DNA of 42,397 bases from Verrucomicrobiota bacterium (lineage in GTDB: Bacteria > Verrucomicrobiota > Verrucomicrobiia > Methylacidiphilales > CAMAQI01): contig JAZKBH010000206.1 in NCBI GenBank assembly GCA_040388725.1, forward strand, positions 6,757 to 49,153. Direction: 5' to 3'. The notes below the pieces were generated by a model, which was not told where the DNA came from, ran no database searches, and worked only from the letters and a program-made list of their open reading frames with translations. The position numbers were made by a program, and so were the translations under genes. Below, piece after piece: positions 16,076 to 40,303 of the stretch (position 1 is its first letter; each line of letters starts with the position of its first letter).

Positions 16076-18994
16076 ATGAAAACCATTCGGATTTTTTCAT
16101 ATTTCGCTTTTTTGGTTTTCAGTAATTTCTCCCTCCTTCACGCCGCCGCTATTATCCTCAATGCCGATGATGCCGCGGCTTCGAGTTCTCTCAACGCGGC
16201 AGGGAACTGGAGTGTTGCCGCCGCCCCTTCGGCAGGGAATACGTATTCGACAAACGGTCATCTTTTACGAACCCCCGGCGGCGTTGGAATTACTTTCGCG
16301 GGAGACTCTCTCTCCATCGATAATGGAAGTCTCTTCTTGTTCAAAGGAAATACAGGATCAACCACCACCGTCGGAAATCTCATTTTAAATGGCGGTACGG
16401 TTGCCGATGGAACAGGAGCCACGACATACGGATTGGCAGGAGCCATCAGTGTCAACGCGGTCTCCGGATTCGATGTGAATTCCAACTCTGCCAATAATCG
16501 AACTCTTACTATTTCTTCCACGATTTCAGGTGCTTCGAATTTAGTCATCGGAAATGGAAGTGGCGGAACCGATACGGGAAGTATTATTCTTTCCGGAAAT
16601 AACAGCGCATTCACAGGGGGAGTCTCCCTCGGAGGAACGAGTGGAAGCGGTGGCGGATCTCGTGTTCTCGCCACCACCAACGTCACTCTTCAAATCGGCA
16701 ATGCCAACGCTTTGGGAACAGGAGCCTTCACGGTGAATGGGGGAACGGTCGATCTCAATGGATTTTCCACTTCCGTAGATAATTTTACAGGGACGGGGGG
16801 AACGATTGTGAATCAAAGTTCTGGAACCACTTCGACTTTGACCATCGGCGCCAGTAACGGAACCGGCGGAAATTATCAAGGAACGATCGCCGATCATACG
16901 TCGGGAACAGGCGTTGTCGCGATGACGAAATCGGGGACAGGAACCATCACTCTCAGTCATGTTAATACTTATACGGGAGCGACCACGATCAATGGGGGAA
17001 TTCTAAGAGCAGGCGTTGTCACCACTGCCTTTGGATCGAATTCTGCCGTCACCCTCGCCAATGTTGCAGGCACCGCACTCGATCTCAATAATAATAGCAA
17101 TACGATAGGCTCCCTCTCGGGAGGAGGAACAACCGGCGGCAATGTCACTTTAGGGAGTGGAACGCTGACCACCGGAGCGGATAACACCAGCACCACCTTT
17201 GCCGGCGTGATTTCGGGAACAGGAGGCCTCACTAAAACAGGTACAGGAATACAAACCTTATCCGGAACCAATACGGCGACAGGAACCGCCACCGTCAGTG
17301 CTGGAACGCTTTCCCTCGGAACTTCTGGAACCTGGGCGGGCAATGTCATCGTGAATAGCAGCTCCACCTTTAAAGGCCGTGGCTCTGTTCTCGGAGCACT
17401 CACGATTAATTCCGGGGGAACTTATAGTCCCGGGACTTCGCCTGGAATTCAAACCGTCGGAAGTCTGACTCTCAATTCCGGAAGTAATACGATTATAGAA
17501 ATCGATGGAGCCACCGCAGGGAATGGCGCAGGATTTCACGATCAAATTCAAGTGACGGGAGCGGCCACGATCAACGGTGGAACGCTCACTCCTCAAACTA
17601 TTTTTTCCGGCTCCAGCGGTTATTCTCCTTCGGCAGGTCAAACGTTTACCATCCTCAGCGCCGGCTCTTTAACAGGTCAATTCACCAGCGTGGATAATTC
17701 TGGAAATCCTTCCGGTCTCACCTTTATTCCTCAATACACCGGAACCTCGGTAATCCTCCTGACCTCTCTTGCGAATTTTAGTTCCACCAGCTCGATCTCT
17801 CTGATGAATTTAAATCCGAGTGAAATTGCGATCGCGCGCTCCCTCGATCAATTTCGTCCGACGGTTATCAATTCCACTCCCGGACATGTGATGAGCGACG
17901 CGGAAGTCATTTACCAAAGCCTGAGTCGACTGACTGCGAATCAAATCCCTGAAGCGATCACTCAGTTAAGTCCCGCCAAACTTGAAGCAGCTCCTCAACT
18001 CTCCCATGCCGTCGGAAGCCAGATTCATTCCCAAATCGGAAGACAACTCGAACTCCGTCGTGATAGTAATCCCACGCAGGGGGCGCTCTCGATTTACGAT
18101 CGAAACGGCCAGCTCATTTACGAACCCGTCGCCTCTTTGGATTCGGGCTCTTTATTCATTCGTAAACAACCCGATAAACTCAGTTTTTTTGCCTCCGTCA
18201 ACGGAGAGCAAGGTGAAGTCAAACCTTCCGAGACACGAACCGATTACGATTACTGGTCCACCACCGCCATTTATGGAGGAAATTATGCACTCTCTCGCGA
18301 ATGGAATCTTGGCGTATTTACCGGTTATGGCCATGCCGATACGAGTCTCGGCGGATCGGGAGGGAAAATTTTCTATAATAGCGGAAAGCTCGGCGGCTAT
18401 GTCAGCTACAATAAAAATGATTGGTTCGGAGAATTCAGCAGCACCATCGGAAAAGGATTTTATGACACTCGTCGAAACATCTCCTTCCTCGCCGAACAAG
18501 CGCGCGGAAAAACCGAAGGCTGGGAACTTTCTCAAGAGCTAAAACTCGGGAAAGATTTAAGCTACGACAAATGGACCTTTAGCCCATCACTCCTCGGACG
18601 CTACTCCCGAACGATCTTGGATGCGTATGATGAAACGGGTTCCGCGGCTCGCCTCCATATCGGCTCCATGGATCAGCAGTCCGTCGTCTCTGGCGCGGGC
18701 CTCACGATTCAACGGCTTATTCCCATCGGAAAAATGAGCTTGAGCCCCCGAGTCTTTCTCAATTATGAACGCGAGTGGATTCGTTCGGGCACCATCGATG
18801 CTCGTTTTGCGGCAGGAGGCGATTCCTTCCGCATTCAAACCGATCCGATCGATCCCGATCAACTCACTGCCGGCACCGGCATTTCCTGGTTCGTCTCCGA
18901 CCGCCTCCAATGGGATCTCTCCTACGAATGCGAAGCCCTCCAAAACGATCTTCAGCGTCAAGCGATCCATCTGAGCTGCAAATTCGAATTTTAA
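16076..18994 (+). CDS. autotransporter with PATR-type (autotransporter-associated beta-strand) repeats and a C-terminal beta-barrel
   Basis: 972 aa. Signal peptide ending LLHA-AA. Many units of about 30 aa of type G(T/S)G..TLSG.NT.TG.TT(I/V).GGTL. The C-terminal third has alternating beta-strand character and ends in ...LSCKFEF (terminal Phe). Confidence 0.9.
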   Translation: MKTIRIFSYFAFLVFSNFSLLHAAAIILNADDAAASSSLNAAGNWSVAAAPSAGNTYSTNGHLLRTPGGVGITFAGDSLSIDNGSLFLFKGNTGSTTTVGNLILNGGTVADGTGATTYGLAGAISVNAVSGFDVNSNSANNRTLTISSTISGASNLVIGNGSGGTDTGSIILSGNNSAFTGGVSLGGTSGSGGGSRVLATTNVTLQIGNANALGTGAFTVNGGTVDLNGFSTSVDNFTGTGGTIVNQSSGTTSTLTIGASNGTGGNYQGTIADHTSGTGVVAMTKSGTGTITLSHVNTYTGATTINGGILRAGVVTTAFGSNSAVTLANVAGTALDLNNNSNTIGSLSGGGTTGGNVTLGSGTLTTGADNTSTTFAGVISGTGGLTKTGTGIQTLSGTNTATGTATVSAGTLSLGTSGTWAGNVIVNSSSTFKGRGSVLGALTINSGGTYSPGTSPGIQTVGSLTLNSGSNTIIEIDGATAGNGAGFHDQIQVTGAATINGGTLTPQTIFSGSSGYSPSAGQTFTILSAGSLTGQFTSVDNSGNPSGLTFIPQYTGTSVILLTSLANFSSTSSISLMNLNPSEIAIARSLDQFRPTVINSTPGHVMSDAEVIYQSLSRLTANQIPEAITQLSPAKLEAAPQLSHAVGSQIHSQIGRQLELRRDSNPTQGALSIYDRNGQLIYEPVASLDSGSLFIRKQPDKLSFFASVNGEQGEVKPSETRTDYDYWSTTAIYGGNYALSREWNLGVFTGYGHADTSLGGSGGKIFYNSGKLGGYVSYNKNDWFGEFSSTIGKGFYDTRRNISFLAEQARGKTEGWELSQELKLGKDLSYDKWTFSPSLLGRYSRTILDAYDETGSAARLHIGSMDQQSVVSGAGLTIQRLIPIGKMSLSPRVFLNYEREWIRSGTIDARFAAGGDSFRIQTDPIDPDQLTAGTGISWFVSDRLQWDLSYECEALQNDLQRQAIHLSCKFEF

Positions 18995-19116
18995 CAGCTG
19001 AGATCTCGACCCATAGAGGACTCCAAATCCATTCTCCTTGAGCGAGACACTTTCCCTTGGAAAATCTTTCATTCTGTAAACCCCGTGGGTTGGGTGACAG
19101 AGGATCAAAGAGTTGC

Positions 19117-19138
19117 CTATGGGGTGAAGACCCCATGG
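19117..19138. promoter_or_regulatory. palindromic variant of the GGGT/ACCCCAT element upstream of the signalling operon
   Basis: CTATGGGGT-GAAG-ACCCCATGG. Arms ATGGGGT/ACCCCAT are perfect. It lies 53 nt upstream of the CheB-like start. The spacer is 4 nt rather than 3. Confidence 0.5.
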
Positions 19139-19190
19139 TCAAAAAAATTAAAGAATTAGAAAATAGGAGGATGAAAGGGAAGAGATCAAA

Positions 19191-19859
19191 ATGGTTTTAT
19201 TAAAAACAAAACAGATCCGACGATCGATCAAGTCGAAAAAGGCCGTTCGTAAGAAAACGCCAAGGGCGTCGAAAGTGAATCTCTCCTTTCCGGTCATCGC
19301 CATTGCGACTTCTGCCGGAGGCTTGAAAGCCTTGTCTGTGATTCTCGGAGGATTACCTGCCGATTTTCCGGCGGCGATTGCGATTGTCATGCATCTCTCT
19401 CCCGACCACAAAAGCCTTCTCGCAGATATTTTAAGTTGTCGTACGCCTTTAGCAGTCAAACAAGCCCATACAGGCGATCTCCTCCGTCCTTCGAGTGTCT
19501 TTGTCGCTCCTCCCAACCATCATCTTCTTGTGGCGAAGGGGGGGAAACTACGTCTCTCTTCGTCGACTTCCAAAAAAGTTCATTTTGCGCGTCCCTCGGC
19601 GGAACCTCTTTTTACCTCGGTGGCATCGGTTTATAAAAAAAAGGCCATTGCGATCGTTCTGACGGGGGGTGATGGCGATGGATCGATTGGGGTGCAGATC
19701 ATTAAGGAAAAAGGGGGTCTCGTCATCGCGCAAGATCGCCCGACATCGCAGGACTTCAGCATGCCTGAATCTTCAATCAAAACCGGGGATGTCGATTTTA
19801 TCCTTCCTTTAAGTGAGATCGCCCCCAAGTTGATTAAACTGGTGGGCATCGGCAGATAA
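19191..19859 (+). CDS. stand-alone CheB-type methylesterase domain protein (no receiver domain)
   Basis: 222 aa. Basic N-terminal tail, then ATSAGGLKAL (Ser nucleophile), VMHLSP and TGGDGDG, typical of the CheB catalytic domain. Confidence 0.85.
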   Translation: MVLLKTKQIRRSIKSKKAVRKKTPRASKVNLSFPVIAIATSAGGLKALSVILGGLPADFPAAIAIVMHLSPDHKSLLADILSCRTPLAVKQAHTGDLLRPSSVFVAPPNHHLLVAKGGKLRLSSSTSKKVHFARPSAEPLFTSVASVYKKKAIAIVLTGGDGDGSIGVQIIKEKGGLVIAQDRPTSQDFSMPESSIKTGDVDFILPLSEIAPKLIKLVGIGR

Positions 19860-19910
19860 GAAGATGATCTCCCCACGACTTTTTAAACTCGGTGGCGGCA
19901 GGATCAACGT

Positions 19911-22574
19911 ATGAAAACAAAATCTCCCCTCCCCCCGACAGGAAAGAAATCCGTTCATGCCTCGGCTAAAACTTTTTCTCTTTCGCGTGGAAATTCCTCT
20001 TTCCCGATCATTGGCATAGGAGCTTCCGCTGGAGGCCTTGAAGCCTTGGAGCAATTTTTTCGAGGAGTTCCTCTGAAGAGCGGCATGGCTTTTGTGATCG
20101 TTCAACATTTAGATCCGACACGCAAAGGGATCATGTCCGAGCTCCTTCAACGCGCGACTCCCATGAAGGTAACGCAGGTGAAAAATCGAACGGTGATCTC
20201 CCCCGACTGCGTTTATGTCATTCCCCCGAATAAAGAGATGTCTCTGCTACATGGAGTTCTCCATTTACTCGAACCTGTGGCCCCTCGCGGTCTCCGTTTA
20301 CCGATTGATTTTTTCTTTCGTTCCCTCGCCCAAGATCAGAAAGAGCAGAGTATGGGCGTCATTCTTTCGGGAATGGGGTCGGATGGCACTTTGGGACTAC
20401 GGGCAATCAAAGAGAAGTCGGGCGTTGTCTTTGTACAGGAACCATCGACCGCCAAATTTGAAAGCATGCCGCAGAGCTCGATTGCCGCAGGATTAGCGGA
20501 TATCGTCGCCCCCGCGGATAAACTCGCGGGAGAGATCATCGCCTATCTCAAGCAAAAACCGTTTCTCATCATGCCCGAAGTCTCCTTGGATGACAAAGAA
20601 CAGAGCTCCTTGGAAAAAGTGATCATTCTCCTTCGCTCTCATACCGGTAACGATTTTTCATTCTATAAGCGAAATACTCTTTATCGACGAATTGAACGTC
20701 GGATGAGCGTGCATCAAATTAGCAAGATCCCGACTTATATCCGCTACCTGCAGGAGAATTCTCAGGAACTCGATCTTCTTTTTAAAGAACTCTTGATTGG
20801 AGTGACCCAATTTTTCCGAGATGCCGCCATATGGAATCAATTGAGCACCAAAATCCTTCCTCCTATGCTCACCCATCGAACCTCGGGTTCCGCATTTCGC
20901 GCTTGGGTCCCCGGATGCTCGACCGGGGAAGAAGCGTACTCACTCGCCATCGTTCTCAAAGAAACGATTCAAAAAATTAATCCCAAGACTCATTTTACAA
21001 TCCAAATTTTTGCTACGGATCTGGATCGGGATGCGATTTATAAGGCGCGTCAGGGAGTTTTTTCAAAATCGATCACGGCCGACGTTTCAGCAGAGCGACT
21101 CAAACGGTTTTTTACCAAAAATGAGCAGAGCTATCGGGTGAACAAGGAGATTCGAGAAATGGTGATTTTTGCACCGCAGAATCTCATTCTCGATCCTCCC
21201 TTTACTAAGCTCGATCTCCTGAGCTGTCGCAATCTCTTGATTTATTTCACTTCCGACGCACAGAAAAAATTAATTCCCTTATTTCATTACAGCTTGGTTC
21301 CTGGTGGAATTTTACTCTTGGGAAGCGCCGAGACCATTGGAAATAGCCATGACCAATTTTCTTCTTTTCATGGAAAATCGAGAATCTTCACACGGTCAGA
21401 GACTCCCTTTCGACCGGATCAAATTGCCTTCTCCTCTCCGCTTCATCTTCCTAAAATCATGGAGCCCGAATTTTCTATATTGCCTAAACCTGAGGTCGGC
21501 CTTCAAACCCAAGCAGATCAGTTGGTTCTCCAGCATTATGCACCCCCTTCGGTGATTACCAACAAAGTCGGCGATATTCTTTATGTGAGTGGACGGACAG
21601 GGAAGTATTTGGAGCCCGCCGCAGGAAAAGCGAATTGGAATCTTTTTGCAATGGCTCAAGAGGGATTACGTTACGAACTCGAACACTCTTTTTCGAAAGT
21701 CCTTCAACAAAAAGAAAAAATAGTGCTTCGAGGTTTGAAAATCGAAACCCCGAATGGCGCAGAATTTGTCACCGTAACACTTCAACAACTGGATGAGACG
21801 GGCCCTTTGAAAGGATCCGTTATTATTCTTTTTACGGAAGCGAGTGCTCCGATGACCTCCGCTCGCGTCGGTCCGTCTCCCCAACTTCGTCTCCCCAATA
21901 CGGAACTGGCGAAATTAAAATTGGAACTTCAACAAGTTCACTCGGAGGCCCGTATCGCTCATGAGGAGATGCAAACCTCGCAGGAAGAACTTCGATCCAC
22001 GAATGAGGAACTGCAATCGACCAATGAAGAATTGCAATCCACCAACGAAGAGCTGACGACTTCGAAAGAAGAAATGCAATCGATGAATGAGGAACTTCAG
22101 ACCGTGAATACCGAGTTGCAGGCCAAAGTGGACGAGCTTTCGAGAACAAGCAACGATATGAAAAACCTGCTCGATAGTACGGATATCGCGACTCTCTTTT
22201 TGGACAAGGATCTCAAAGTTCGTCGGTTTACGCCTCAAGCGACCAAGATTATTAAATTGATCCCAAGCGATGCCGGGCGACCGATTACCGATCTCGCTTC
22301 GGAACTTCGCTACAGCGACCTTGCCGTGGATGCCAGAGAGGTCCTGCGAAAGCTGACCTCCCTCGAAAAACAGATCAGTACCGACGATGGGCGTTGGTTC
22401 ACCATACGCATCATGCCTTATCGAACGCTCGAAGAACGGATTGACGGTGTGGTCATCACTTTCACCAATATTACCGAATCCAAAACGTTGGAAGCCCAAC
22501 TGCGAAACAATCCCTCTCTCTTGAAAAAAAGCGCAAAGAAATCATCCAAAAAAAAGTCCGGTAAAAATCGTTAA
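19911..22574 (+). CDS. CheB-methylesterase / CheR-methyltransferase / PAS fusion protein with a heptad-repeat coiled coil
   Basis: 887 aa. CheB part: GASAGGLEAL, VQHLDP, GMGSDG. CheR part: WVPGCSTGEEAYSLAIVL, LLSCRNLLIYF. A PAS-like region follows, then eight EE(L/M)xSTN heptads, then a C-terminal PAS (FLDKDLKVRRFTP...ITFTNIT). Confidence 0.9.
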   Translation: MKTKSPLPPTGKKSVHASAKTFSLSRGNSSFPIIGIGASAGGLEALEQFFRGVPLKSGMAFVIVQHLDPTRKGIMSELLQRATPMKVTQVKNRTVISPDCVYVIPPNKEMSLLHGVLHLLEPVAPRGLRLPIDFFFRSLAQDQKEQSMGVILSGMGSDGTLGLRAIKEKSGVVFVQEPSTAKFESMPQSSIAAGLADIVAPADKLAGEIIAYLKQKPFLIMPEVSLDDKEQSSLEKVIILLRSHTGNDFSFYKRNTLYRRIERRMSVHQISKIPTYIRYLQENSQELDLLFKELLIGVTQFFRDAAIWNQLSTKILPPMLTHRTSGSAFRAWVPGCSTGEEAYSLAIVLKETIQKINPKTHFTIQIFATDLDRDAIYKARQGVFSKSITADVSAERLKRFFTKNEQSYRVNKEIREMVIFAPQNLILDPPFTKLDLLSCRNLLIYFTSDAQKKLIPLFHYSLVPGGILLLGSAETIGNSHDQFSSFHGKSRIFTRSETPFRPDQIAFSSPLHLPKIMEPEFSILPKPEVGLQTQADQLVLQHYAPPSVITNKVGDILYVSGRTGKYLEPAAGKANWNLFAMAQEGLRYELEHSFSKVLQQKEKIVLRGLKIETPNGAEFVTVTLQQLDETGPLKGSVIILFTEASAPMTSARVGPSPQLRLPNTELAKLKLELQQVHSEARIAHEEMQTSQEELRSTNEELQSTNEELQSTNEELTTSKEEMQSMNEELQTVNTELQAKVDELSRTSNDMKNLLDSTDIATLFLDKDLKVRRFTPQATKIIKLIPSDAGRPITDLASELRYSDLAVDAREVLRKLTSLEKQISTDDGRWFTIRIMPYRTLEERIDGVVITFTNITESKTLEAQLRNNPSLLKKSAKKSSKKKSGKNR
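21963..22130 (+). repeat. 21-nt (7-aa) tandem repeat inside the CheB-CheR-PAS gene
   Basis: EEMQTSQ EELRSTN EELQSTN EELQSTN EELTTSK EEMQSMN EELQTVN TELQAKV. Confidence 0.9.
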
Positions 22575-22598
22575 TTCGGAATACCCCCTCTTCCTCTT

Positions 22599-23987
22599 GT
22601 GAAACAAAAAACAACACTTCAAAAGAAATTCTCCACTCTGCGCCACCGTGCCGAACGCCTGATTTTAGAATCGGAGAAAAACATTTCGAAGGAGAAAACT
22701 CCCAAGTCGACCGGTGAATTTTTGCGCATGCTTCACGAACTCCAAGTGCAGCAGGTTGAACTTGAAATGCAAAATGAGGAACTTCAGGAGGCGCGGAATC
22801 GAATGGAATCCGCTTTGGAAAACTATACTGAGCTCTATGATTTTGCGCCGGTGGGCTATTTCACTCTTAGTCCCACGGGGATCATCCTTCAGGTCAATCT
22901 TACCGGAGCACGTTTTGCAGGAATCGAACGGTCGAGGCTGATTGGAAAATCTTTCACGTTTCTTCTTTCTCCCCTGGTTCGTTCCATTTTTCTTTCATTT
23001 CTCAAAGAGATCTTTGGAGGTCCCATTAAAAAATCCGCCGATTTCGAACTTTCAAGCGAATCAACATCCCCTCGAACGATCAACATTGAGGGGCAACGTT
23101 CTCCCCATGAGAAAGAATGTCATGTGGCGGTCATTGATATCACCGAACGGAAGGAAGCGGAGAGAGCCCGACGTCAGATTGAAGTGTTGGGAGCCTCAAA
23201 CCTAAAACTGGAACAGGAAATTCTTCGGCGTCAGAAAGGAGAGGAACTCCTGAAGAAAGGAGAGCGATATCAAAAGGATCTTTTGGCGCAATCCCAGGAG
23301 ATGCAAAAACAACTCCGATTATTTTCCCATCATATTCTTTCAACGCAGGAAGAAGAACGTAAGGAAATCAGTAGGGATTTGCATGACATCATCGTTCAGA
23401 CCCTGACAGGCATTAATCTCCGTCTTGCCACATTGAAAAAAACTTCCCCTATCACAACCAAGGGATTTGATCAAAAAATCGAACAAACTCAGAGGATGAT
23501 TGAAAAATCTGTGGGGATCATCCACCGGTTTGCCTGCGAATTACGTCCACCGGTTCTGGACGATCTCGGATTAATTCCTGCCCTTCAAACTTTTTTAGAA
23601 AATTTTAAAGAGCGAACCGGAGTTCAAACCTATTTAACGACTTTTCATCGGACCATCCCTTTGGAAATAAAGCAGCTCACGGTTCTTTTTCGTATCGCCC
23701 AAGAATCTCTGAATAATGTCGCCCGACATGCGCAAGCCAGTCATGTGAGCGTGAGCTTCGTCAAATCCTCTCATGAGATTTTGATGAAAATCGAAGACGA
23801 TGGAAAATCTTTTGATGTGAAGCGCATCTATAATTCCAAAGGGAGAAAACATCTCGGTCTTCTGGGAATGAGGGAACGCGTTGAAATGGTCTCCGGAACT
23901 TTTTCGATCCATTCCGCACCTGGCCAAGGAACGACCATTGAAGTTAAAATCCCATTTTTCAAAAACAAGGAAACCACCTCTTCATGA
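22599..23987 (+). CDS. PAS-domain sensor histidine kinase (HisKA_3/NarX-DesK type)
   Basis: 462 aa. N-terminal coiled coil ELEMQNEELQ, then PAS (YDFAPVGYFTLSPTGIIL). H-box EEERKEISRDLHDIIVQ (HisKA_3). HATPase_c (LNNVARHA, DDGKSFD, GLLGMRERV, GQGTTIEV). Confidence 0.9.
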   Translation: MKQKTTLQKKFSTLRHRAERLILESEKNISKEKTPKSTGEFLRMLHELQVQQVELEMQNEELQEARNRMESALENYTELYDFAPVGYFTLSPTGIILQVNLTGARFAGIERSRLIGKSFTFLLSPLVRSIFLSFLKEIFGGPIKKSADFELSSESTSPRTINIEGQRSPHEKECHVAVIDITERKEAERARRQIEVLGASNLKLEQEILRRQKGEELLKKGERYQKDLLAQSQEMQKQLRLFSHHILSTQEEERKEISRDLHDIIVQTLTGINLRLATLKKTSPITTKGFDQKIEQTQRMIEKSVGIIHRFACELRPPVLDDLGLIPALQTFLENFKERTGVQTYLTTFHRTIPLEIKQLTVLFRIAQESLNNVARHAQASHVSVSFVKSSHEILMKIEDDGKSFDVKRIYNSKGRKHLGLLGMRERVEMVSGTFSIHSAPGQGTTIEVKIPFFKNKETTSS

Positions 23988-24223
23988 AAATCAATAAGCT
24001 CCATCGCAAGGGGAAGCTCTCTCAAAAATTCAGGTTGATCAAATCCCGAAAGACGCATCTCCTCCGACTTTTCATTGCGCGAGCAACGACACGCTTTCTT
24101 CAAGCGAGCGAACTACGCCTGGGGAATTCTCAACGTCAATCAACGTTTCACGTTGGTGCCACGATCAAGACGCTCATTCACCTCCCCCTGAAACCGAAGG
24201 GAATTCCTTCTAAGAGATTATGA
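23984..24223 (+). CDS. possible small basic protein (79 aa) bridging the kinase and regulator genes
   Basis: Its ATG overlaps the kinase stop (ATGA, 23984-23987) and its TGA overlaps the regulator ATG (ATGA, 24220-24223). The frame is open across the whole 232-nt gap. Very K/R-rich with no recognisable domain. Confidence 0.35.
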   Translation: MKINKLHRKGKLSQKFRLIKSRKTHLLRLFIARATTRFLQASELRLGNSQRQSTFHVGATIKTLIHLPLKPKGIPSKRL

Positions 24224-24903
24224 AAAAAAATACATTACTCCTTGCCGATGATCATACGATGGTGCGCGAAGGCTTCCGAAAAATGCTGGAATTGGAAACC
24301 GATGTCGAAATTATCGGCGAGGCCAAAGATGGCCGCCAAGCCGTCGAGATGGCGATCAAACTTCGACCTGAGGTCGTCTTGATGGATATTGCGATGCCCC
24401 GCCTCAATGGATTGGAAGCGACCCGCCAACTTCTTAAAGCCCTCCCCAAGATCAAAATTCTCATTCTCTCCGCACACAGCGATGATGCTTACGTTCAAAG
24501 TGCCATCGAATCGGGAGCCGTCGGATTTCTATTAAAACAAACCTCCACCGCCGATGTCTGCAAAGCGATCCGGGAAGTACGCCAAGGGAAAACGTTTTTC
24601 TCTCCCTCGATTGTCAAACGACAAGCGCGACTCAAATCTCGAACAACCGTTCATACGGGCGTTTTTGATAAGAATAAAAAAGCGGCGACCTTGACCTCGC
24701 GCGAAATGGAAGTCCTTCAATTGATTGCTGAGGGAAAAGCAAATAAAGAGACCGCTGCCGAACTCGGCATTGGGATTAAAACCGTCGAAAAACATCGAGA
24801 ACATCTGATGGAGAAACTCGATATCCATGATACCGCCGGACTGACTCGCTATGCGATCAGTGCAGGAATCATTGAGAACAGCGTACAGATCACCATTCTT
24901 TAG
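24220..24903 (+). CDS. NarL/LuxR-family response regulator
   Basis: 227 aa. Receiver domain (LLADDH, VVLMDIAMPRLNG, ILILSAH) plus a LuxR-type HTH (LTSREMEVLQLIAEGKANKETAAELGIGIKTVEKHREHLMEKL). Confidence 0.92.
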   Translation: MKKNTLLLADDHTMVREGFRKMLELETDVEIIGEAKDGRQAVEMAIKLRPEVVLMDIAMPRLNGLEATRQLLKALPKIKILILSAHSDDAYVQSAIESGAVGFLLKQTSTADVCKAIREVRQGKTFFSPSIVKRQARLKSRTTVHTGVFDKNKKAATLTSREMEVLQLIAEGKANKETAAELGIGIKTVEKHREHLMEKLDIHDTAGLTRYAISAGIIENSVQITIL

Positions 24904-24957
24904 ATTTTTGGCTTTTCTCTCATAAAGCGTCCGATAGAGGGACGCATAAAAACTTCC

Positions 24958-25135
24958 TTAAAGACATTTATCTCACGCGACGACGCAACGACGCGATGTA
25001 AGAAAAAATAAATGGGATCAATAAAAGTGGAGAAATTTCTGCGCGGTTCTTTCCTCCTTTTCTTTGGTTTTAAGAAAATAGAATCGGATTGAACGTCGCG
25101 TCGTTGTGGCGTCGCGTGAGATAAATGTCTTTCAA
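24958..25135. repeat. 178-bp MITE-like element: family A terminal inverted repeats of about 41 bp around a 93-bp AT-rich core
   Basis: TTAAAGACATTTATCTCACGCGACGACGCAACGACGCGATG (24958-24998) versus the reverse complement of 25092-25135 (TTGAAAGACATTTATCTCACGCGACGCCACAACGACGCGACGTT). There are 23 consecutive identical nt and about 37 of 41 overall. Confidence 0.8.
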
Positions 25136-25174
25136 TGAATTTTTCGGAAGTTGTCCTGCATTCAACTTCTTCGA

Positions 25175-25193
25175 GTAGGGTTACACCCCATAG
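25175..25193 (+). promoter_or_regulatory. conserved 19-nt element, copy 1
   Basis: GTAGGGTTACACCCCATAG, 83 nt upstream of ATG 25276. Confidence 0.6.
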
Positions 25194-25275
25194 TCTCTTT
25201 TTGCCTCTTCTACTACTCTTTGACCATGAGGAACAAAATCTCCTCAGAAAACTCCCAATAAAAGTGAAACCTCTT

Positions 25276-25860
25276 ATGCCAAAAAAATCCGTATTCTGCG
25301 TCGCCAATACCCGGGAGCAAGCAGATCGAGTGGTCTTCCAACTAAAAGCCGCCAATTTCTGTCATGACGATATCTCCGTCATTTTTCTCGATAAGGAAAT
25401 TCCTCACCATTTTGTCCCTGAAAAAAATACTCCGATTCCCGAAGGAATCGTTGCTGGGGTGAGTTTAGGAGGAATTTCGGGAGGTCTCTTCGGTTGGATG
25501 ATTGGAATTGGAGCCTTGAGCATTCCCGTCGTCGATGCCTTCATTGTCGTCAGTCCTCTTTTGGAAGCATTCCGTGAAGCCGCCATGGGTGCAACGGTCG
25601 GAGGACTCATCGGGGGACTCATGGGAATGGTCATCCAGGCAATCGAAATCAAATGTAACAAGGAAAAGACCAAACTAAACCACATTCTCATTTCAGTTCA
25701 CACCGAATGCACCGATGAAATCTTTCGTGCTCGAAAAATCTTCACCCAGATAGGAACGAAGGACATTTGTACCAACGGAACATATTCGGCTTCCTTCGAG
25801 AACTCCAAAAACAATTCCTTCTCGAATCGCGGTAAAAATCTTGTCGCCATGCAGTCTTAA
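25276..25860 (+). CDS. general-stress-protein-like membrane protein (YflT/GSP17M-type N-domain plus glycine-zipper segment)
   Basis: I trimmed the 241-aa track ORF to Met48 (MPKKSVFCVANTREQADRVVFQLKAANFCHDDISVIF), because the upstream part covers a repeat arm and the 19-nt element. The middle is a Gly-zipper (GVSLGGISGGLFGWMIGIGAL...GATVGGLIGGLMGM). Confidence 0.6.
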   Translation: MPKKSVFCVANTREQADRVVFQLKAANFCHDDISVIFLDKEIPHHFVPEKNTPIPEGIVAGVSLGGISGGLFGWMIGIGALSIPVVDAFIVVSPLLEAFREAAMGATVGGLIGGLMGMVIQAIEIKCNKEKTKLNHILISVHTECTDEIFRARKIFTQIGTKDICTNGTYSASFENSKNNSFSNRGKNLVAMQS

Positions 25861-26009
25861 TCGCCTTTTTTCTAAGATCGATTGCTTAGAAAATTATGGG
25901 AGATGAATCCTGCTAAGGACCCCCTTTTTAAATCGCTCCCAAAGATGCTAAAATTCGACGTGGGTGATCTCTTTAAAAAATATTTTTGTACACCTCAAGG
26001 AGTTTTATC

Positions 26010-26162
26010 ATGGGTATTATTTTATTGATCGTTCTTGTTCTGATGATGATTGGAGCATTTCCCGCATGGCCTCATAGCCACGATTGGGGATATTACCCCA
26101 GCGGGGGACTCAGCATGATTTTAATCATTTTGGTTATTCTGATTTTGCTCGGAAAAATTTAA
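26010..26162 (+). CDS. DUF3309-like small membrane protein (50 aa)
   Basis: Below the ORF-track size cut-off. AAGGAG at 25997-26002, 7 nt before the ATG. MGIILLIVLVLMMIGAFPAWPHSHDWGYYPSGGLSMILIILVILILLGKI matches my memory of the DUF3309 pattern (two TM segments flanking WPYS..WGY.PSGG). Confidence 0.65.
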   Translation: MGIILLIVLVLMMIGAFPAWPHSHDWGYYPSGGLSMILIILVILILLGKI

Positions 26163-26313
26163 GCCATACGAATCTGTGGTGGCAGCTCAGGCGGCTCTTC
26201 TTGATCGCGCGCAATAGTCAAGCGATCCAGGGAAGGTATTCCCCCAATGTTTTTATGATCCTCCCCATCCTATTATCGATGCAAATACTGTATTTATTGA
26301 TGAACTCATCCTC

Positions 26314-27510
26314 ATGAAAACTTCCCAACCCTCTCTTTTGATTATGAATGGGGGTTCATCGAGCATTAAGTTCGCTCTCTATAAACACGGGGAACCTCTC
26401 ACACGAGAACTTCATGGAAAGATTGATCAGATCGGGAGCAAAGGAACAAGCCTGACCTTCAATGATCCCACCCAGAATCCGTCGGAGAAAAAAAGAATCG
26501 TTGTACCCGATCATTCATCGGCCGCGAATTTTCTAATTCACTGGCTTGAAGAACAGATCCACTTTGAATTCGTGAAGGCCGTGGGACATCGTCTCGTTCA
26601 CGGCTTACAACATACCGCTCCCGAAAGAGTCACTCAGAAACTTTTAGATGAACTCCGTGGGATGAGTCCGTATGATCCGGAACATCTTCCGAGCGAGATC
26701 GAGATGATCGATCTCTTTTGTCAACGCCATCCTCAACTTCCCCAAGTCGTCTGCTTTGACACGGCATTTCATCATGAGATGCCACGGATCGCTAAATGTC
26801 TGCCGATTCCAAGACGCTTTGAAGCGAAGGGAATTCAACGCTACGGGTTCCATGGTTTATCTTATTCTTTTCTGATGGAAGAACTCCTCCGCATCGGGGA
26901 TCCCACCGCGTCCCAAGGCCGCGTGATCCTCGCTCATCTGGGCAACGGAGCCAGTCTCGCCGCCATTCTGAATGGGAAAAGCATCGAGACGAGTATGGGC
27001 TTCACTCCCGCATCCGGATTGATGATGAGTACCCGTTCCGGTGATCTCGATCCCGGATTAATTCATTACTTGGCACAAACCGAACAAATGACTCCGACTC
27101 AATTTAATCACATGGTCAACCACGAGTCTGGTCTGCTCGGCATTTCCGAAACCAGTTCCGATATGCGGGATCTGCTCGCGATAGAAGCCCATGACCCACG
27201 CGCTGCAGAAGCGATCGCCTTATTTTGTTATCAGGTTAAAAAATGGATCGGCTCCTTCGCTGCTGTCTTGGGTGGATTGGATACCCTCGTCTTTTCCGGG
27301 GGAATTGGCGAAAACTCTCCCTCCATTCGCACGCGAATCTGCGCCGGGCTTGATTTTCTCGGCATCGAATTGGATGAAAATTTAAACCAAAAAAATTCAT
27401 CCCTAATTTCAAATGCCTCTGGACGCGTCACGGTTCGAGTGATTCCCACGGACGAAGAGCAAATGATTGCCCGATCCGTTAGTCGTCTGATGAGTAAAAA
27501 ATTGAAATAA
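26314..27510 (+). CDS. ackA: acetate kinase
   Basis: 398 aa with LIMNGGSSSIKFALY at the N-terminus, RYGFHGLSY, AHLGNGASL and VFSGGIGENS. Confidence 0.92.
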   Translation: MKTSQPSLLIMNGGSSSIKFALYKHGEPLTRELHGKIDQIGSKGTSLTFNDPTQNPSEKKRIVVPDHSSAANFLIHWLEEQIHFEFVKAVGHRLVHGLQHTAPERVTQKLLDELRGMSPYDPEHLPSEIEMIDLFCQRHPQLPQVVCFDTAFHHEMPRIAKCLPIPRRFEAKGIQRYGFHGLSYSFLMEELLRIGDPTASQGRVILAHLGNGASLAAILNGKSIETSMGFTPASGLMMSTRSGDLDPGLIHYLAQTEQMTPTQFNHMVNHESGLLGISETSSDMRDLLAIEAHDPRAAEAIALFCYQVKKWIGSFAAVLGGLDTLVFSGGIGENSPSIRTRICAGLDFLGIELDENLNQKNSSLISNASGRVTVRVIPTDEEQMIARSVSRLMSKKLK

Positions 27511-27789
27511 TACGAATCTCCATTTCTATAATGAGATTAGAAAAATCTTAAGAATAAACCAAACAAACCCCGATAAAATCGCATACGTGTCAAATGAAGT
27601 GAAATACAGGAGTTGCATCGATAACAGGATGGGGAGGATCATTGAAATTGAGTTCGAAAACTTGATAATTGAAAAACCCCCTCTGAATTTTTATCCACTT
27701 CATCCTGATATCGATGCTGAATTTTCCACCATCCTTTTCTCATTTATCCCTTTCATCGTTTTTAGATCCATGTAAATTTTCTCTATACC

Positions 27790-31064: not shown

Positions 31065-31083
31065 GTCGGGTTTTACCCCATGT
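31065..31083 (+). promoter_or_regulatory. conserved 19-nt element, copy 2
   Basis: GTCGGGTTTTACCCCATGT, 83 nt upstream of ATG 31166 and 125 nt upstream of ATG 31208. Confidence 0.6.
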
Positions 31084-32625: not shown

Positions 32626-32644
32626 GTCGGGTTTAACCCCATAG
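32626..32644 (+). promoter_or_regulatory. conserved 19-nt element, copy 3
   Basis: GTCGGGTTTAACCCCATAG, 69 nt upstream of ATG 32713. Confidence 0.6.
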
Positions 32645-36980: not shown

Positions 36981-37378
36981 TTTTCACCACAGAGATAAAA
37001 CCGAGACACAGAGCTTAGGAGATTTCTATTTAAAAGACACAGGCTCTATTGAAATGATCCTATCAAAGTGATTGGAGGGGCAAAACCAATTTCTTAAAAG
37101 CGGAGCCTGAATAGTTTGGCGTGGGGAACGCAACCTCCGCGAGTCCAACGTGTGGGATCATCCCCGAATGATTCGCATTCAGGAAAACCTCATCGATTCT
37201 GGCATATCTCCCCTTCCTGTAGCCACTATCCCTTCGGAGATGCCAACATCCTCTCCCATGAAATGCTCATTCTATCATCACGAGATCGTCTAAAACCTTG
37301 GACTCGCAGCGCTCGTCCCTCCATATAAATCAAAGACTTTCCCATACTCTGTGTCTCGGTTTTTCTCTGTGGTAAAAA
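36981..37378. repeat. 398-bp non-coding element bounded by 32-33-bp family B inverted repeats
   Basis: TTTTCACCACAGAGATAAAACCGAGACACAGAG (36981-37013) versus the reverse complement of 37347-37378, TTTTTACCACAGAGAAAAACCGAGACACAGAG (1 mismatch plus 1 indel). The interior carries a half-copy of the 1328-1392 hairpin arm. Confidence 0.8.
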
Positions 37379-37420: not shown

Positions 37421-37439
37421 GTCGGGTTTTACCCCATAG
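37421..37439 (+). promoter_or_regulatory. conserved 19-nt element, copy 4
   Basis: GTCGGGTTTTACCCCATAG, 16 nt upstream of ATG 37455 and 34 nt upstream of ATG 37473. Confidence 0.6.
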
Positions 37440-40001: not shown

Positions 40002-40020
40002 GTAGGGTTACACCCCATCG
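40002..40020 (+). promoter_or_regulatory. conserved 19-nt element, copy 5
   Basis: GTAGGGTTACACCCCATCG, about 280 nt upstream of the ATPase ATG (40304) and 97 nt upstream of a 58-codon ORF (40117). Confidence 0.55.
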
Positions 40021-40303
40021 CCTCATTGAGTTTTCCAACTATCTTCTCCTCCTGAATCACCCCATTGAAAAAAGCTTACTGAAAATAAAAATTCTCTCCC
40101 CATCCTACAGACTTCCATGACCTCCTTCGACGATCCCAAAACGCTTCCCGTTCAATTAACTTTTCGAGCGGAAACCGATTCCACACGCAAAAATCCCTCT
40201 TTCCAAATCTGGCATGAGCGGGGAAGCCTTTCGTCGTCGCTTCGAAAAAAGGATCTTACCTTTCAAAAAATCCTCTTTTCCCATATAACTTAAAGACCTA
40301 CTT

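Follow-up and report, generated by a model that had tools for sequence, protein, structure and literature searches.

A CheB/CheR methylation module beside an ordinary two-component system in a Verrucomicrobiota bacterium: a candidate chemoreceptor-independent input layer

The locus described here comprises four genes that combine CheB and CheR methylation enzymes with a sensor kinase and a response regulator. It lies in a 42,397-nt stretch of DNA from a Verrucomicrobiota bacterium (GenBank assembly GCA_040388725.1; hereafter the window), which corresponds to positions 6757-49153 of the 49-kb contig C206 (JAZKBH010000206.1) in a 3.62-Mb assembly of 287 contigs that is 89% complete. The genes are all on the forward (+) strand and are separated by gaps of 51, 24 and 232 nt. 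In order, they encode a stand-alone CheB catalytic domain of 222 amino acids (aa) (19191-19859; Pfam CheB_methylest, E = 2e-54), an 887-aa CheB-CheR-PAS-like-helix-PAS_10 fusion protein (19911-22574; limits from Pfam and AlphaFold2), a soluble 462-aa sensor kinase (22599-23987) and a 227-aa NarL/FixJ-type response regulator (24220-24903). The kinase is composed of an N-terminal motif, a helix referred to below as the partner helix, a PAS domain, HisKA_3 (5e-11) with the H-box SRDLHD, and HATPase_c (4e-12), and the regulator consists of a receiver (REC; Response_reg, 4e-27) and a GerE helix-turn-helix domain (9e-18). Both the gene positions and the four-gene domain architecture claimed in the original prediction, which had been made from the sequence alone, were confirmed by the open reading frame (ORF) listing and the Pfam domain calls at all four ORFs. 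Neither CheB domain carries Response_reg. No NCBIfam equivalog was obtained at cut-off for any of the four proteins, MctR being the nearest for the regulator. As judged from their residues, all four proteins have intact catalytic or phospho-transfer motifs.

In the fusion, Pfam recognises CheB_methylest at aa 34-209 (7e-55), CheR_N at aa 234-283 (3e-15), CheR at aa 298-489 (9e-53) and, following a coiled coil, PAS_10 at aa 750-855 (4e-32). An AlphaFold2 model based on an alignment of 76 sequences (predicted local distance difference test, pLDDT, 77; predicted template modelling score, pTM, 0.40) sets the limits at aa 31-215 for CheB (20001-20555, +), aa 229-495 for CheR_N plus the S-adenosylmethionine (SAM)-binding domain of CheR (20595-21395, +), aa 531-644 for the PAS-like domain, aa 668-756 for the helix and aa 757-855 for PAS_10 (22179-22475, +; pLDDT 84-90). 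When aligned to CheB structures, both CheB domains of the locus keep the Ser/His/Asp triad of Salmonella CheB (1A2O; S164/H190/D286), and among the 76 homologues of the fusion S39 is nearly invariant while H66 and D158 are invariant. The CheR motifs FFRD (R303), CSTGEE, ATDLD (D370) and CRNLLIYF (Y445), aligned to 5FTW and 1BC5, are likewise kept and are invariant or nearly so (at least 90%) in the same homologues. Inactivating substitutions were looked for in CheR and in both CheB domains and none was found, and the possibility that the enzymes are inactive can be ruled out, as motifs and triads are kept in the structure alignments, in the 76 homologues and in nine orthologues of the stand-alone CheB.

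The original prediction had also described the CheB-CheR-PAS architecture as widespread, which a scan of one genome per species bore out, with relatives of the fusion in at least 565 species. The best 80 share 56-70% identity with the fusion along its entire length and span Verrucomicrobiota, Chloroflexota, Desulfobacterota, Burkholderiales and Myxococcota, with an archaeal metagenome-assembled genome (MAG) also represented; the closest are from Verrucomicrobiota MAGs. Cultured carriers of the module include Thauera phenylacetica B4P, Massilia rubra and M. mucilaginosa (loci L086, L077 and L090). Within the order of the host the distribution is patchy (10 of 41 genomes). With 56-70% full-length identity to hundreds of other proteins, the fusion is a typical member of the database family 'two-component system, chemotaxis family, CheB/CheR fusion protein' (KEGG cheBR), with the Pfam order CheB_methylest-CheR_N-CheR-PAS_10, and it displays the features of its family: a REC-less CheB, the CheR_N-CheR motifs, a helix of N-E-E-L-Q-S-T units followed by PAS_10, and an adjacent partner of the HELQVHQIELEMQNEEL type. 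Compared with the bare cheBR label, the locus described here includes a specific kinase and regulator, together with a candidate DNA box and an extra CheB.

The best-conserved stretch of the fusion in the 76-homologue alignment is not a catalytic motif but residues 691-735, with a mean top-residue frequency of 0.98 over aa 706-720. These residues are part of a single uninterrupted 89-residue helix that AlphaFold2 places between the PAS-like domain and PAS_10, and which contains a Glu-Glu heptad array (EEMQTSQEELRSTNEELQSTNEELQSTNEELTTSKEEMQSMNEELQTVNTE; aa 685-735; 21963-22115, +) that, given its conservation, is a candidate built-in methyl-accepting helix. That is, seven Glu-Glu pairs are spaced exactly 7 residues apart (685/686 to 727/728), and these pairs are E-E in essentially all 76 sequences. 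In the heptad register, position a is Asn and position d is Leu or Met, and invariance extends beyond the core to the surface positions b, c, e, f and g, where Q, S and T residues are also invariant. The classical methylation site of methyl-accepting chemotaxis proteins (MCPs) is E-E-x-x-(A/S)-(S/T), and each N-E-E-L-Q-S-T unit of the helix fits this pattern. Furthermore, in a scan that covered every stop-to-stop ORF of 100 aa or more in the genome (7179 ORFs), tandem [EQ][EQ]xx[ASTG][ASTG]x heptads were detected in the fusion only.

A second conserved helix is located in the kinase. Its N-terminal region (aa 14-78; 22638-22832, +) carries a signature made up of LRHRAE, a variable linker and the helix LHELQVQQVELEMQNEELQEARNRME, which runs into the PAS start YTELYDFAPVGYFTL; the segment at aa 41-90 corresponds to a HELQVHQIELEMQNEEL-type helix plus the PAS start. 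A consensus built from 70 downstream partners across phyla contains the same elements, namely a short LRxRAE motif, a variable linker of ~20 residues, and a helix RLxHELQVHQIELEMQNxEL leading into the PAS start YTDLYDFAPVGYFTL. In 70 of the 80 loci, the fusion is immediately followed by a gene that matches the window's kinase over its first ~190 residues, and in six further loci the partner is adjacent, upstream or concealed in a frame with a wrong listed start. The outputs of these partners vary and include HisKA_3 kinases (29 of 63), HisKA kinases (18), GGDEF proteins (7), EAL and HD proteins, and hybrid kinases. That is, the fusion family is tied to a helix-PAS partner whatever the partner's output domain. 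A six-frame search of the host genome revealed exactly one fusion-type and one partner-type helix, which are adjacent, and five other genomes have one fusion each and one to three partner helices, of which one is always adjacent. Among 104 genomes of the order, a partner is present in all 13 that have a fusion orthologue, often on both sides, and in 3 of the 91 without a fusion; since kin genomes are not independent, these fusion-partner counts are descriptive only. Many of the genomes analysed are MAGs. Two of the three fusion-less genomes with a partner are incomplete MAGs, and in the third, which is 96% complete, the partner helix has decayed to IHQLKDHQIKLERENKEILESR and lost its Glu pair. 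The statement in the original prediction that plausible substrates are encoded locally is therefore supported by the invariant EE helix in the fusion and by the signature N-terminal helix in the kinase.

CheR and CheB act on glutamates of MCPs, and reversible Glu methylation is the textbook memory of chemotaxis. To our knowledge, glutamate methylation by CheR/CheB is known only on chemoreceptor-type proteins. Profile searches of the contigs of the genome gave no MCPsignal or CheW match on C206. This agrees with the predicted absence of MCP, CheA and CheW from the locus, and a canonical chemotaxis cluster in the operon, just outside the window or elsewhere on the contig can be ruled out. The term receptor-less, which had been applied to the module, thus holds for the locus and also for the family, but not for the genome, as other contigs encode five MCPs, three CheW-domain genes (one of which, a frame of 754 aa, has the size of a CheA) and a canonical pair of CheR and REC-CheB, in which CheB is a separate gene (a 373-aa frame on contig C56). 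With respect to the family, 19 of 48 fusion-bearing genomes showed no MCPsignal match, including genomes of 5-7 Mb and a closed 4.26-Mb chromosome, and five of these 19, the closed chromosome among them, also lack a CheW domain. The fusion family therefore cannot depend on MCP arrays.

The stand-alone CheB encoded by the first gene (hereafter the extra CheB) has no receiver domain and has a basic N-terminal tail. A CheB without a receiver domain should be constitutively active. Its triad is kept relative to 1A2O and in the nine orthologues, all full-length. The protein is 34% identical to the CheB domain of the fusion and 28% identical to the canonical CheB of the genome. A recent tandem duplication of the fusion's CheB can be ruled out, given the 34% identity and the fact that a Thermotoga CheB scores at least as well, and by sequence the extra CheB is a lineage of its own. 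In 11 loci it immediately precedes the fusion, all of these loci belonging to the 43 closest (L014-L056), which are mostly labelled Verrucomicrobiota, and its clade includes at least 120 protein clusters in metagenomes. The pairing of two demethylase domains with one methyltransferase had been considered unusual; the second CheB is not an oddity of the window but belongs to a conserved clade, seen among the sampled loci only in the Verrucomicrobiota-like (closest) ones. In some clade members, a HisKA_3-like domain is found at the N-terminus, with R or Q in place of the phospho-acceptor His (DLRD/ELQD versus DLHD), that is, a pseudo-version of the dimerization and histidine phosphotransfer (DHp) domain. 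In other loci a gene of its own, located upstream, encodes the His-less pseudo-DHp, frequently together with an RsbU_N-like region. Examples in Verrucomicrobiota-like relatives are the RsbU_N-like plus HisKA_3-like (His to Q) proteins encoded upstream of the fusion at L016:4924-5892, L017:3711-4478, L021:15-1661 and L032:1690-2061, which are free-standing or joined to the extra CheB. In the host genome no pseudo-DHp partner of the extra CheB was found, the best and sole match to the pseudo-DHp being the kinase's own DHp. We read the pseudo-DHp fusion as a hint that the extra esterase may work at the kinase.

Downstream of the four genes, a recurrent DNA motif marks a series of stress-type genes. 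The box, GGGT-N3-ACCCCAT (GT[AC]GGGTTnnACCCCAT in the form returned by a de novo k-mer search), occurs in five copies of the same orientation (+), each located ~25 nt upstream of a -10-like hexamer and preceding a stress-type unit: at 25175-25191 (GTAGGGTTACACCCCAT) before a glycine-zipper stress protein, at 31065-31081 (GTCGGGTTTTACCCCAT) before a protein with three BON domains (3xBON), at 32626-32642 (GTCGGGTTTAACCCCAT) before a DUF2950 gene, at 37421-37437 (GTCGGGTTTTACCCCAT) before a grpE/dnaJ-like unit, and at 40002-40018 (GTAGGGTTACACCCCAT) before a P-type ATPase. A sixth, weaker copy is found at 26088, upstream of the acetate kinase gene. The whole genome contains seven strict boxes versus ~0.4 expected from base counts, and five of them are co-oriented next to the regulator. 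In addition, a perfect palindrome, ATGGGGTGAAGACCCCAT, with a 4-nt spacer (19119-19136, no strand assigned) lies 55 nt upstream of the cheB start and could be the operator or promoter box of the operon. Palindromes of this type are present at the module borders in the relatives L016, L018, L019, L021, L031, L045 and L055. In relatives from the Planctomycetes-Verrucomicrobia-Chlamydiae (PVC) group, boxes of both kinds immediately precede the first gene of the module in at least 11 loci. In loci from other phyla, no more than three weak matches were seen, which cover the core and not the extended consensus.

The distribution of the regulator and the boxes was surveyed in 41 genomes of the order, regulator orthologues being defined by at least 60% identity. 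Orthologues (60-78% identity) were found in eight other genomes, and two or more boxes, usually near the regulator, are present in eight of the nine genomes with the regulator, versus one of the 32 without it. As regulator and boxes co-occur in this manner, the regulator is predicted to be the box-binding factor. No synteny of the module and the downstream island was found in relatives, only sporadic single matches, and because the flanking genes are not syntenic the position next to the stress island is not evidence in itself. Thus, of the predicted output through a motif-marked stress island, the output itself is plausible, given the regulator-box co-occurrence and the boxes before the module in relatives, but the argument from position was not upheld.

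Five of the nine regulator-bearing genomes, one of them closed, contain boxes and lack the fusion. Four of the five encode, adjacent to the regulator, a kinase that matches the window's kinase over the DHp and the catalytic core, at 52-55% identity. Three of the four kinases are entirely without the partner helix, and the fourth (in G053) keeps the helix-PAS region too, with a decayed helix; no kinase match was found in the fifth fusion-less genome (G079). Because relatives keep the kinase core, the regulator and the boxes without the fusion, the CheB, the CheB-CheR fusion and the helix/PAS elements would constitute an optional input layer on an older kinase-regulator-box regulon. Other genes occupy the vicinity of the kinase in some of these genomes. 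In the fusion-less loci L102 (G064:C5; 2391-3845) and L104 (G053:C11; 2382-3836), an ATPase gene directly follows the orthologous HisKA_3 kinase, and its product, judged by its sequence, reads as KaiC/RadA-like (GIQGLDEITGGGLPRGRP...GGAGCGKT). In G064, an ORF for a His-less pseudo-DHp also precedes the kinase. The presence of these two neighbours suggests that they may be other interchangeable input modules on the same kinase core.

We consider that there is an even chance that the locus encodes a chemoreceptor-independent CheB/CheR methylation module acting as an input layer on an ordinary two-component system. In the mechanism that we infer, CheR would use SAM to methylate exposed glutamates at the b and c positions of the fusion's own dimeric helix, and the methyl groups would be removed by the CheB domain of the fusion and, in this lineage, also by the extra, REC-less and presumably constitutive CheB, while the PAS-like and PAS_10 domains would bias the balance between methylation and demethylation. 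With its N-terminal partner helix and docking motif, the kinase would sense whether the fusion helix is methylated, so that the state of the fusion helix would set HisKA_3 autophosphorylation and, in turn, phosphorylation of the NarL-type regulator, which would bind the boxes before the stress genes and the palindrome before its own operon. In sum, a stress-response kinase would be endowed with a methylation memory, or adaptation, that is slow and reversible. More tentatively, and with somewhat less than even confidence, the picture may be taken as a whole: CheR and CheB would write and erase methyl groups on a helix of their own polypeptide, the kinase would read them through the docking helix and the stress regulon would thereby gain a memory; the same plug-in would serve kinases, diguanylate cyclases and phosphodiesterases across phyla, and in Verrucomicrobiota a second esterase could be anchored to the kinase via the pseudo-DHp.

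The methyl acceptor could instead be the kinase, at a Glu of its N-terminal helix (ELEMQNEEL) or at another residue, with the fusion helix serving only for dimerization and docking. The partner helix is near-invariant and linked to the fusion, and its end is formed by the N-E-E-L unit that also occurs in the fusion heptads; moreover, the extra CheB of relatives is joined to a copy of the kinase DHp, which would place an esterase at the kinase, and the short LRxRAE motif on its variable linker resembles a tether. However, the first residue of the N-x-E-L pair varies among partners (A, T, V, E or Q), which leaves no conserved EE and at most one site, and the seven invariant pairs of the fusion would be left unexplained. 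Furthermore, single-chain CheB-CheR-kinase paralogues keep the EE heptads and are without the partner helix. We think methylation of the kinase unlikely and, because of the varying residue in the partners and the heptads kept in the single-chain paralogues, we favour a model in which the fusion's own helix would accept the methyl groups and the partner helix would serve for docking or read-out.

The fusion helix might also be an ordinary, unmodified signalling coiled coil, in which case CheB and CheR would act on a third protein or a small molecule, or would have a SAM-sensing or scaffold role. Long conserved helices commonly join sensor and output domains, and three properties of the helix weigh on this side and against its being a methyl acceptor. 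Its EE pairs are never Q in the 76 homologues, that is, they lack the E/Q alternation of many MCP sites; its extreme conservation could reflect a purely structural or signalling role; and it misses the strict consensus [ASTG]2-x2-[EQ]2-x2-[ASTG]2, the best score being 9 of 10, because Q or R stands at -5 of its sites. As a positive control, this strict 10-residue consensus was matched twice in every one of the five MCPs that the genome encodes (e.g. AASLEETSAS). Since its heptads fit the classical site yet miss the strict one, the helix is MCP-like but distinct. On the other hand, the helix is invariant at its surface positions (b, c, e, f and g), which points to its being recognised by other proteins, the residues needed for catalysis by CheB and CheR are invariant or almost so (at least 90%) in different phyla, and no other conserved neighbour offers itself as a possible substrate, so that we regard an unmodified helix as distinctly unlikely. 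Even less probable, in our estimation, is that the module serves the five MCPs of the genome in trans, as a PAS-regulated second adaptation system whose link with the kinase would be transcriptional only. The host genome does contain MCPs with consensus methylation sites, together with CheA and CheW, and the CheB and CheR domains, catalytically intact by their residues, are homologous to the chemotaxis enzymes, so that action in trans, or cross-talk with the full chemotaxis set located elsewhere in the genome, may occur in this organism, which also counts against a chemoreceptor-independent module. Such a role is nevertheless difficult to reconcile with the canonical CheR and REC-CheB pair already present, with the occurrence of the family in genomes without MCP or CheW, including the closed chromosome, and with a 49-kb contig devoid of chemotaxis genes, and it would account neither for the tie to the partner helix nor for the invariant helix within the fusion.

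Some further points weigh against a methylation layer that is read by the kinase and passed on to the regulator. The packing of the domains in the AlphaFold2 model is unreliable (pTM 0.40), and docking of the helix into an active site is unsupported by it. The kinase and regulator genes are 232 bp apart in the window, whereas in relatives the two genes overlap or are less than 30 bp apart. The spacer of the operon palindrome is 4 nt versus 3 nt in the boxes of the stress genes, and that one regulator serves both is an assumption. Finally, no published functional or biochemical methylation study of the family was found in the searched literature.

In that literature the fusion family appeared only as an annotation label, in gene lists or counts, with no substrate, partner or output described, and neither of the two helix motifs was printed in any paper found; work on CheR fusions and Che-like pathways always involved an MCP. 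One close comparison is adaptation in the Tar/Tsr-CheR-CheB system of E. coli and Salmonella. As in that system, the enzyme domains are homologous and have intact catalytic residues, a long helix in which Glu-Glu pairs recur every 7 residues is the candidate substrate, and an opposing methyltransferase and esterase could store a slow memory. Unlike in Tar/Tsr adaptation, the locus is without an MCP signalling domain, CheA, CheW and a CheB receiver, and the strict site consensus is absent; the enzymes are fused to each other and to PAS domains, with the candidate substrate in the same polypeptide, and the output is a HisKA_3 kinase with a transcription factor rather than a motor. The Wsp system of Pseudomonas and Che3 of Rhodospirillum centenum are chemotaxis-like pathways with alternative functions (PMC3868531, PMC4436063). 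There too, CheR/CheB-type enzymes tune a non-motility output (cyclic di-GMP, c-di-GMP; cyst formation; gene expression), but those pathways use an MCP, CheW and a CheA-type kinase, none of which would be needed here, where the kinase is an ordinary HisKA_3 protein.

On the output side, the dormancy regulons controlled by DosS/DosT-DosR also rely on a NarL-family regulator that acts on palindromic boxes before stress and hibernation genes. The locus shares with them a NarL-family regulator, a soluble kinase with N-terminal sensor domains, and a GC-rich palindromic box before stress, hibernation and chaperone genes, although binding to the box is predicted here, the box sequence and the sensor domains differ, and no DosR equivalog was obtained at cut-off. 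If the proposed mechanism is true, adaptation by covalent modification would extend to general signalling, operating on ordinary sensor kinases and c-di-GMP enzymes, and a function would be assigned to a gene family that occurs in at least 565 species and is now only an annotation label. The locus would be a good entry point, since the whole chain is legible in it: two esterases, one methyltransferase, a candidate substrate helix, a docking helix, a kinase, a regulator and a candidate box. Moreover, the relatives with the same kinase core and regulon and no methylation layer provide natural controls.

The four-gene set is preceded in the window by an autotransporter gene (16076-18994; Pfam). 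It is followed by genes for the small glycine-zipper protein, acetate kinase, an ABC pair, the 3xBON protein and RpiB, and further downstream by those for DUF2950, phosphoketolase, GrpE, a DnaJ-like protein and the P-type ATPase. A search of 18800-26400 against Rfam gave no match, and in a promoter/terminator consensus scan of the operon, sites were no more frequent than in shuffled sequence. The spacer between the kinase and regulator genes (23988-24219) is non-coding and unique in the genome; it contains no Rfam match and no convincing terminator, and nothing in it was recognised.

The two strict boxes outside the window lie at C263:6749-6765, ~45-60 nt upstream of the gene for a 756-aa membrane protein whose sequence reads like that of a BcsA-type glycosyltransferase ending in a PilZ-like tail, and at C43:4348-4364, in a toxin-antitoxin-like region. 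The only other copy of the operon palindrome in the genome (ATGGGGTAAAGACCCCAT; C39:6853-6870) is located 37 nt upstream of the gene for an 865-aa multi-PAS hybrid histidine kinase, between this gene and a divergent gene for a 745-aa secreted protein. The listed ORF of the glycine-zipper gene (25135-25860) contains box copy 1, and because the homologue in L056 aligns only from residue 48, translation probably begins at the ATG at 25276 (MPKKSVF...). The small protein so encoded contains a glycine-zipper membrane segment and matches no Pfam or NCBIfam entry. A ~41-nt sequence, ATGATCCTCCCCATCCTnTTATCGATGCAAnTnCTGTATTT, forms an inverted pair at 26255-26295 (+) and ~27600-27645 (-) that brackets the acetate kinase gene (26314-27510), and shorter cores, CTCCCCATCCT, are present at 40096 and, with one mismatch each, at 37208 and 2072. 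The ATGATCCTCCCCATCCTnTTATCGATGCAAnTnCTGTATTT repeat is distinct from the GGGT-N3-ACCCC box.

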